64,000 nt of DNA, from assembly GCA_013626165.1 (NCBI GenBank), contig NDHX01000007.1, positions 6,560 to 70,559 on the forward strand. The letters are read 5' to 3'. Positions 24,121-24,200 of the stretch are shown in pieces; the stretch's first letter is position 1, and the number at the start of each line of letters is the position of its first letter. The notes beneath the pieces were generated by a model. The model saw only the letters and a list, made by a program, of their open reading frames with translations, was not told the DNA's origin and did not search any database. Position numbers and translations under genes: made by a program. The stretch is from Candidatus Velesiimonas alkalicola. GTDB taxonomy: Bacteria; Omnitrophota; Gorgyraeia; Velesiimonadales; Velesiimonadaceae.

Positions 24121-24200
24121 ATCTTCTATCTTCTATCTTCTATCTACTATCTACTATCTACTATCTACTACTATTTACTATCTACTATTTCCTACCTACT
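24121..24200. repeat. 7-mer (CTACTAT / TCTATCT) tandem array
   Basis: atcttctatcttctatcttctatctactatctactatctactatctactactatttactatctactatttcctacctact. Confidence 0.9.

Follow-up and report, generated by a model that had tools for sequence, protein, structure and literature searches.

The stretch of DNA analysed here (the window, 64,000 nt; positions 6,560 to 70,559 of the forward strand of contig NDHX01000007.1, assembly GCA_013626165.1, Candidatus Velesiimonas alkalicola, phylum Omnitrophota) carries a family of tandem repeats with a 7-nt unit, (A/G)TAGTAG (RTAGTAG) on the mRNA strand, in the spacers of a type IV pilus cluster and around genes encoding SPFH proteins and a P-type ATPase. The family comprises six period-7 arrays, four in mRNA sense and two inverted. 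We read these arrays, with a probability of about 0.6, as heptanucleotide long simple sequence repeats (LSSR) of the type that includes the cyanobacterial short tandemly repeated repetitive (STRR) sequences, generated by slippage and positioned by their own stop-codon content. An earlier note, made from the letters of this DNA, had described a second short-repeat family in the intergenic regions, and its existence was confirmed by two repeat scans and a shuffle test.

Tandem Repeats Finder reported period 7 at 24121-24200 (12.0 copies, 81% matches), 25342-25367 (3.7 copies, 100%), 31257-31290 (4.9 copies, 100%), and 32538-32561 (3.4 copies, 94%), as well as about nine copies of the units TCCCACC/ACCTACT at 31403-31469. 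A lag-7 autocorrelation scan agreed, with blocks at 24116-24190, 25340-25370, 31253-31294, 31402-31466, and 32534-32565. The two-unit pattern RTAGTAGRTAGTAG, with at most one mismatch allowed, had 20 matches in the window, every one within the array blocks, whereas 100 dinucleotide-preserving shuffles averaged 0.06 matches and never exceeded 1. On the plus strand, the four mRNA-sense arrays read CTACTAT or CTACTAC.

The first of these arrays (24116-24200, minus strand, about 12 units) reads AGTAGGTAGGAAATAGTAG(ATAGTAG)n...(ATAGAAG)3 as mRNA, covers the last two pilT codons and the TAG stop (24192-24194), and constitutes the first 85 nt of the pilT-pilB spacer; its purine-rich strand contains 41 A, 0 C, 24 G, and 20 T, with TAG in all three frames. 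The second (25340-25370, minus strand) consists of the four units ATAGTAG GTAGTAG GTAGTAG GTAGTAA and is situated right after the TAA stop (25371-25373) of the upstream pilB gene. The third (31402-31470, minus strand, about 9.5 units) overlaps the TAG stop (31461-31463) of the SPFH gene at 31461-32474 and contains the variants GTAGGAG, ATAGTAG, and GTGGGAG in a gradient, which on the plus strand runs from TCCCACC through TCCTACC and TACTACC to TACTATC. The fourth (32534-32565, minus strand) has four units, GATAGTA GATAGTA GGTAGTA GGTAGGGGG, and overlaps the stop (32552-32554) of the SPFH gene at 32552-33436. The larger inverted array (31253-31294, plus strand) reads AAGGAG(ATAGTAG)5 ATAGGGGA, or CUAUCUACUAU as mRNA, and forms the 3' arm of an inverted pair whose 5' arm is the third array. 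The other is a short copy of about two degenerate units (32508-32523, plus strand) within AAGGAGATAGTAGAGAGG, which starts at 32506; this copy has the 14-mer AAGGAGATAGTAGA in common with 31253-31266. The coordinates given in the earlier note were right to within a few bases, apart from the second array, which it had placed at 25335-25362. Its array at 31257-31292 does belong to the heptamer family, but in the opposite orientation (AGATAGT x5 on the plus strand, as Tandem Repeats Finder and the sequence indicate), and its single array at 32508-32562 is really the short inverted copy followed, after a 10-nt gap, by the fourth array.

Every gene between 16.6 and 53.2 kb lies on the minus strand. 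According to Pfam, these include T2SSF/pilC (20979-22208), pilB (22295-24013), pilT (24192-25271), a second pilB (25371-27101), the P-type ATPase gene (29368-31245), and the two SPFH genes, gene calls that agree with the previous placement of the arrays in the pilB/pilT/pilB spacers and at the SPFH/SPFH/P-type ATPase junctions. Each of the four mRNA-sense arrays begins within 0-11 nt of the stop codon of its upstream gene (pilT, pilB, and the two SPFH genes). The stops of pilT and both SPFH genes fall inside the first array units, which also encode the similar C-termini of PilT and the second SPFH protein (...AGT AGG TAG). All six arrays lie between genes, apart from overlaps with the stop region of an upstream gene. 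The larger inverted array stops 8-13 nt short of the ATG of the P-type ATPase gene (31243-31245), while the short inverted copy is located 34 nt upstream of the GTG start of the SPFH gene at 31461-32474. Most genes downstream of the arrays keep strong ribosome-binding sites, for instance AAGGAGG in pilT and GGTGAT in pilB. Scans of 20-34 kb for consensus promoters (42 sites vs. 38.3 expected) and consensus terminators (10 vs. 9.3 in shuffles) returned none tied to the arrays, which are probably co-transcribed with the flanking genes.

In the favoured explanation, slipped-strand mispairing at replication would make and resize the head-to-tail arrays, which would have spread through the spacers of one Omnitrophota lineage, and their position would be set by selection on coding content. 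Because RTAGTAG on the purine-rich strand carries TAG in all three frames, an array in this orientation could adjoin a gene end but would be barred from entering the gene. It might sit against or slightly over the 3' end at a cost of at most a few C-terminal residues, might itself supply the stop codon of the upstream gene, and would be kept clear of the ribosome-binding site and start of the next one. The co-transcribed arrays would then be C-free, structure-free linkers. Junctions that were formerly tight and probably translationally coupled (3-38 nt in relatives) would have been enlarged to 36-215 nt, probably removing translational coupling in pilB-pilT-pilB-pilC, and the two opposed arrays at 31253-31294 and 31402-31470 would create a long stem incidentally.

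The same unit occurs in distant phyla. An exact (RTAGTAG)3 scan with one genome per species gave at least 120 stretches (loci L005-L124); the figures in this paragraph hold among the matches listed. These matches include Bacteroidota, Cyanobacteria (Pleurocapsa, Waterburya, Scytonema, and Pelatocladus), Patescibacteria, Elusimicrobia, Omnitrophota, and others, and several of the loci carry further 7/8-mer units nearby. With the arrays oriented to read RTAGTAG and a cut-off of 150 aa for open reading frames (ORFs), 106 of 123 arrays were found outside any ORF of at least 150 aa. The 5' neighbour was closer than the 3' neighbour in 33 of 40 two-sided arrays (p = 4e-5), with median distances of 8.5 nt (5') and 92 nt (3') in co-directional sense contexts. 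The upstream gene had the same sense in 46 cases vs. 18, and the upstream stop was at most 30 nt away in 30 of the 46 same-sense cases, being TAG in 19 of those 30. As a control, other strand-asymmetric period-7/8 arrays in the same loci followed the 5'-neighbour rule in 20 of 24 cases when they had stops in all frames and in 5 of 9 cases when they had no stop frames, small counts that come from crude ORF calls and possibly include overlapping repeat-finder rows. A simple account of this 5'-neighbour polarity would be that an array leans on a gene end only in its three-frame-stop orientation.

Comparison with relatives shows that the arrays of the window are young. The nearest relatives of its PilT are found in Omnitrophota. 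In those with 73-75% identical PilT, the pilB-pilT-pilB-pilC junctions measure 3-38 nt and hold nothing beyond stop codon, Shine-Dalgarno site, and start codon, with no arrays, whereas the array-bearing junctions of the window measure 36-215 nt. In a relative whose PilT is 88% identical (L125), the spacers at both junctions next to pilT are likewise expanded, but from other units: in front of the pilT ribosome-binding site, GACTATA x9.6 and then CTGGTGCA x6; past the pilT stop, AACGGTA x4.7 and then the 2-unit GATAGTAGATAGGGG. Since the 73-75% relatives lack arrays and the 88% relative has other units, the arrays are recent and lineage-restricted, with units that turn over quickly while arrays persist in the same spacers. 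Such a pattern would be expected from the in-place birth, homogenisation, and decay of microsatellites, and the intergrading units along single arrays would be the product of mutation, slippage, and homogenisation.

The arrays are genuine, since they were recovered in separate assemblies from The Cedars, and they break assemblies. Contig BBPG01000290.1 (GCA_002581605.1, the GPS1 2012 serpentinizing-spring metagenome from The Cedars; PMC7005843) is 99.7% identical to the window at the DNA level, and arrays 24116-24200 and 32534-32565 are base-identical in it. Three other repeat regions, including array 25340-25370, are N gaps in this scaffold, and these gaps (244, 262, and 151 N) exceed the roughly 174, 139, and 24 nt of the window; the copy number of array 25340-25370 thus comes from the window assembly alone. 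When metagenomes were scanned with the SPFH protein, the matches were three contigs, all nearly identical and all from The Cedars, with no relative of intermediate divergence. One of them, BBPE01006699.1, spans 26464-37474 of the window gap-free, with 32 single-nucleotide polymorphisms (SNPs), none in the arrays, and carries array 31402-31470 at equal length. The BBPG and BBPF contigs end at 31440, within that array, while array 32534-32565 is identical in the BBPG, BBPE, and BBPF contigs. Two of the three Cedars assemblies stop or leave gaps inside the arrays.

Could the arrays, or their lengths, be assembly artefacts, as the earlier note had allowed? The N gaps larger than the window sequence, the two contigs that stop at 31440, and a contig of the 88% relative that ends just past an array would fit this possibility. 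Nevertheless, we regard it as extremely improbable: two arrays are base-identical in BBPG, BBPE01006699.1 crosses 31253-31470 and 32534-32565 without a gap while its 32 SNPs mark it as a different consensus, and similar arrays are present in more than 100 unrelated assemblies. Furthermore, arrays of 31-85 nt are probably below the typical short-read length.

The earlier note had also suggested checking whether copy number differs between strains, and no difference was seen. Wherever the arrays are spanned, copy numbers are the same in BBPG, BBPE, BBPF, and the window, at 0.3-0.5% divergence. This constancy bears on the idea that the arrays are contingency loci, in which fast copy-number change would switch or tune the expression of the type IV pilus ATPases. 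Short tandem repeats do adjoin genes for a surface structure here, and another Omnitrophota genome (L049) has heptamer arrays in a pseudopilin cluster. On the other hand, no copy-number difference accompanies the 28-32 SNPs per 6-11 kb, the arrays follow stop codons instead of lying in ORFs, the 20-34 kb region has no promoter excess, the heptamer family also flanks housekeeping-type genes (SPFH and P-type ATPase), and Rehm 2015 was equally negative for GGGNATC repeats (PMC4692102). We therefore consider a contingency role very unlikely. If they proved variable at read level, the arrays could serve as strain markers.

Regarding composition, the purine-rich strand of every array is devoid of C, has a purine content of 74-80%, and provides a TAG in each of the three frames, while the complementary strand has no stop in any frame. 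The strand asymmetry reported previously is thus real, but the non-B DNA that had been suggested from it is not supported. An H-DNA motif needs a homopurine-homopyrimidine mirror repeat that runs without interruption for at least a dozen bases; the longest homopurine run across the arrays is 3-7 nt, which leaves the triplex idea without its basic requirement, and no mirror repeat is present. Single-strand DNA folds of every array gave a minimum free energy of 0 kcal/mol on both strands, so slipped hairpins are not to be expected. GG(G) runs are missing from the core units ATAGTAG and GTAGTAG, and G-tracts occur only in GGGAGGTGGG at 31402-31415, so the repeat units do not provide the four or more tracts of at least three G needed for a G-quadruplex. 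Phased A-tracts are likewise absent. Although one strand lacks C and three 7-nt units amount to 21 nt, about two helical turns, it is highly improbable that the arrays act at the DNA level as triplex or H-DNA, slipped hairpins, or curved DNA affecting replication or transcription.

As RNA, the arrays form only trivial pairs, and the inverted pair is the exception. Its 39-nt arms (31253-31291 and 31432-31470) are 90% complementary and lie 140 nt apart, and the SPFH-ATPase spacer (31240-31475) folds at -85.9 kcal/mol (z = -8.0). The remaining three array spacers gave z = -0.98, -1.79, and +1.01, the first of these values being that of the local fold around the copy at 32508-32523, which was no better than shuffles. 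Beside this stem, the P-type ATPase ATG has no Shine-Dalgarno sequence, and the mRNA segment CUAUCUCCUUAAAUAUUAUG (31243-31258) resembles the anti-Shine-Dalgarno sequence; the start itself is uncertain, as a gene call in another assembly begins 17 codons further in.

These features raise the question of whether selection maintains the arrays as cis-acting RNA elements in polycistronic mRNAs. C-free tracts would then bind S1, cold-shock or oligonucleotide-binding (OB)-fold proteins, or Hfq-like proteins, or serve as RNase entry sites, setting re-initiation or decay between cistrons, and the inverted pair would be a processing or stabilising stem in the SPFH-ATPase spacer. This would suit arrays that are completely unstructured, that always lie between co-directional genes, and that recur, with a changed unit, in the corresponding spacers of the 88% relative, as well as the stable inverted pair and an ATPase start without a Shine-Dalgarno sequence 8-13 nt past its 3' arm. 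Binding of S1, Csp (cold-shock protein), or CsrA has been proposed for TAACTGA heptamers (MacGregor 2015, PMC4679880), and work cited there indicates that B. subtilis CspB can bind heptamer direct repeats with one protein per heptamer. However, the homologous copies are all too nearly identical to show covariation, Rfam 15 gave no match in the whole window at gathering score, and inverted partners are rare, with both-strand arrays close together at 1 of about 120 loci from other genomes among the matches listed. In addition, the unit is not conserved between close relatives, the 73-75% relatives manage without an expanded spacer, and stop-codon content would by itself explain the polarity. We consider this reading possible but doubtful.

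The window also contains arrays with an 8-nt unit, and the earlier note had described 8-mer arrays abutting 7-mer arrays at two places and proposed a composite module. One of these abutments stands. The array at 25282-25323 is a perfect 8-mer array (AGAGCACC x5.2 on the plus strand, 100%; (CTGGTGCT)x5 as mRNA), lies directly 5' of the pilT ribosome-binding site AAGGAGG, and is 16 nt from array 25340-25370 according to Tandem Repeats Finder; it is the only true 8-mer array that adjoins a 7-mer array. The supposed 8-mer array at 24016-24112 turned out to be two period-7 blocks. This remainder of the pilT-pilB spacer (24015-24111, minus strand) holds diverged blocks, TATCACC/TAGCACC x3 at 24015-24035 and TTACCAG-type x4.7 at 24079-24111, around approximately 43 nt of unique sequence. 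The composite module is not supported in the form proposed: a true 8-mer array is present in 1 of the 4 spacers with 7-mer arrays (pilB-pilT, 25272-25370), roughly a dozen 8-mer arrays stand alone, and the two kinds do not co-occur significantly. It is still plausible that they share a habitat and an origin, because their units intergrade and because the 88% relative has a 7-mer array, an 8-mer array, and the ribosome-binding site in this order. On the plus strand, the units grade from TCCCACC through TCCTACC, TACTACC, and TACTATC to TTCTATC, then to TATCACC/TAGCACC, and then to AGAGCACC.

A stronger claim would be that 7-mer and 8-mer arrays together make up a single composite cassette of the spacers, possibly mobile and comparable to a miniature inverted-repeat transposable element (MITE) or a repetitive extragenic palindrome (REP), that was copied into spacers. 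The conserved order in the pilB-pilT spacer of the window and the 88% relative, the array ends that are partly in common, and the 39-nt inverted arms around 140 nt at 31253-31470, which resemble terminal inverted repeats, are compatible with it, as is a 14-nt motif, AAAGCTGTCGTTTG (minus strand), shared by the unique part of the pilT-pilB spacer (24066-24079) and the segment between the inverted arrays (31330-31343). Yet this motif is only weakly above chance: its 11-nt core has 2 matches, both exact with one mismatch allowed, vs. 0.4 expected, and 8 of 100 shuffles reach 2. The flanks and interiors otherwise differ among array sites, which have only the 14-nt motif and short end motifs in common, the window contains no second copy of the 140-nt interior, most 8-mer arrays occur without a 7-mer array, in a co-occurrence that is not significant, and neither a target-site duplication nor a transposase was found nearby. 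A whole unit with fixed ends and interior at several sites, as a MITE or REP-like element has, was not observed, and a cassette is accordingly quite unlikely. Separately, the complement core CTGTCGTT of the 14-nt motif also occurs at about 41046, and a reading of the AAAGCTGTCGTTTG region as -35/-10 elements of the extracytoplasmic function (ECF) type was dropped by eye, as the spacing differs between the copies.

It is also conceivable that the arrays are non-neutral, with stop-anchored heptamer tracts free of C and of structure acting together with start-proximal, stop-free 8-mer tracts as a lineage-wide inter-cistronic code whose 7-nt period is read by an OB-fold protein, a speculative and rather unlikely idea. 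If true, a cold-shock/S1-type protein with one domain per heptamer would set termination, re-initiation, and decay, and the arrays would have replaced translational coupling in the pilus operon.

More generally, the source genome is prone to 7/8-nt tandem arrays in its spacers. Within the window, period-7/8 arrays with several unrelated units make up at least 13% of intergenic bases and occur in 17 of 37 spacers, at least 69% of their bases fall in the intergenic 8.8% of the window, and their density is about one array per 3 kb.

Returning to slippage-made heptamers placed by stop codons, several observations weigh against this explanation. The copy number is constant among three or four assemblies that are 0.3-0.5% apart, so slippage is not fast here. 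The heptamer unit recurs at six places, and array ends are partly shared (AAGGAGATAGTAGA twice and TAGGGG at three 3' ends); this recurrence and the shared ends could come from copying, from gene conversion, or from selection for the unit. That the 88% relative has kept arrays in the same spacers while the units turned over could point to a role under selection. Finally, the stop-frame control is as small and crude as stated above, and the support is sequence-based.

Among the other repeats of the window, further members of the 8-mer family (CTGGTGCT/AGCACCAG) are located at 20904-20961, 22234-22272, 41073-41126, 43481-43527, 47222-47284, 47419-47457, 53461-53487, 54407-54501, 59435-59568, and 61435-61466. 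This family has no stop codon in any frame on either strand, and ORF finders run through it; the arrays can thus mislead ORF callers, as stop-free 8-mers lengthen ORFs and array TAGs set gene ends. Several 8-mer arrays lie directly 5' of a ribosome-binding site in mRNA sense, the long ones show a 23-nt super-period (8+8+7), several are preceded by the semi-conserved head AAGGTGACTGGYRAC, and opposed arrays make palindromes at 47222-47290 and 47419-47457. The unit CTGGTGCT was also compared by eye with a sigma-54-like promoter, an idea dropped because the GG-to-GC spacing is off by one. Unrelated short-unit arrays comprise TCCGTAT x3 (13637-13661), CCGTARA x3 (41023-41043), ATTTGAC x5.9 (51633-51672), the 8-mer GGTGTCAA x4.5 (49971-50007), and ACCAGTT x3.4 (38581-38604). 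A 70-nt palindromic element (ATGGGGTCAACTCTATTTTCT ... AGAAAATAGAGTTGACCCCA) is found at 27092-27162 and 53247-53317 in the same orientation with one mismatch; its stem, judged by eye from the alignment, is about 20 bp, and the two copies may represent either a dispersed hairpin or a terminator common to both sites. Additionally, an extremely basic 29-aa ORF (MPCGRKRKKAKMAKHKRKKRLRANRHKKK) is duplicated in tandem on the minus strand (47305-47394 and 47065-47154), each copy having its own GGGGGAT ribosome-binding site and the first being bracketed by palindromic 8-mer arrays. It had no NCBIfam match and may encode a small ribosome-associated protein.

Pilus loci of other Omnitrophota also vary in their surroundings. 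In the 75% relatives, an ECF-type sigma factor gene and a zf-HC2 anti-sigma gene are situated after pilC (L002 14149-14745, L004 10238-10822), whereas accB/accC follow pilC in the window; because of these different pilC neighbours, the pilus cluster appears to have been rearranged in the lineage of the window. In the pseudopilin cluster of L049 (JAHISK010000085.1), a heptamer array at 5443-5508 (AGATAGT to GGATGGC to AGACAGC) lies after a stop codon and apparently also provides the following prepilin-like ORF with its ATG and its leader, MADSRQQK, while a second array, (GAAGACC)x5 at 5059-5096, fills the neighbouring junction.

With respect to known repeat classes, the cyanobacterial STRR heptamers are the oldest example of the class, and the role of bacterial heptamer repeats, as well as the reason for 7-nt units, has been a question since their description. 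The name STRR denotes particular cyanobacterial units and implies no functional class, and the sequences of these units reportedly go back to Mazel et al. 1990. The window resembles the STRR case in having several tandem heptamer families in the intergenic DNA of one genome, but its unit, RTAGTAG, and its host phylum, Omnitrophota, are different, and its arrays are not STRR in that sense. REP sequences and bacterial interspersed mosaic elements (BIMEs) are intergenic palindromes within operons. The inverted pair at 31253-31291 and 31432-31470 would likewise form a long inter-cistronic RNA stem, but its arms are tandem arrays with no defined palindromic unit, it occurs in 1 of 4 spacers, and 140 nt separate its arms. 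In phase-variation repeats, exemplified by the AGAT repeats in the 5' untranslated region of Moraxella uspA2 (cited in PMC4679880), a short tandem repeat similarly occupies transcribed non-coding DNA of surface-structure genes; in contrast, the arrays of the window lack copy-number polymorphism in near-identical populations and follow stop codons instead of lying in a promoter, 5' untranslated region, or ORF.

The closest parallels are heptamers. STRR heptamers are known from Calothrix PCC 7601 (cited in PMC4692102). MacGregor 2015 (PMC4679880) described TAACTGA direct repeats in marine Beggiatoaceae, some Cyanobacteria, and Bacteroidetes, where forward repeats overlap some stop codons and are barred from ORFs. 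Both units have two stop codons, three-frame stops in forward orientation, a translatable reverse strand, a predicted absence of RNA structure, and a distribution over distant phyla. Most TAACTGA sets, however, lie a few nt upstream of a start lacking a ribosome-binding site, whereas 4 of the 6 window arrays are stop-anchored and the downstream genes mostly have a strong Shine-Dalgarno sequence; with RTAGTAG as the unit and only the inverted array at 31253-31294 adjoining a start without one, the window arrays fall outside the TAACTGA family. Rehm et al. 2015 (PMC4692102) reported GGGNATC and GGGGA(C/T)T heptamers of Xanthomonas and Nostoc, genome-wide and mostly between co-directional ORFs. 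Their purine/G-rich strand coincides with the coding strand where they overlap a stop or lie 0-50 bp from it, and with the non-coding strand upstream of ORFs; the repeats are always nearer the 5' ORF and have no tie to surface or phase-variable genes. Their polarity and co-directional placement are the same as in the window, while RTAGTAG differs in having no G-tracts and hence no quadruplex, no four-unit preference, and two stop codons per unit.

Heptamers are the commonest class of long simple sequence repeats (5-11-nt units) according to Mrazek, Guo & Shah 2007, as cited in PMC4679880 and PMC4692102, and polymerase slippage was proposed for them. The window arrays share with this class their head-to-tail 7-nt copies (3.4-12 at five sites) at a frequency beyond chance, their enrichment in non-coding DNA, the occurrence of several units in one genome, and a sporadic phylogenetic distribution. 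As for length change among relatives, none is seen at 0.3-0.5% divergence, other units and lengths are found at 88%, and there are no arrays at 73-75%. Earlier reports of long-unit repeats mostly concern large, high-GC genomes (PMC4692102, introduction), whereas these occur in Omnitrophota, in a small, low-GC (~37%) genome context and at very high local density. Our literature search found no description of intergenic tandem repeats in Omnitrophota, and a search for the RTAGTAG-family unit gave only unrelated eukaryotic matches. The arrays belong to the known class of heptamer simple sequence repeats, to which this locus adds a unit and a phylum, Omnitrophota of a hyperalkaline serpentinizing spring; they differ from the described families in unit, host phylum, and local density, and in their anchoring at stop codons instead of starts.

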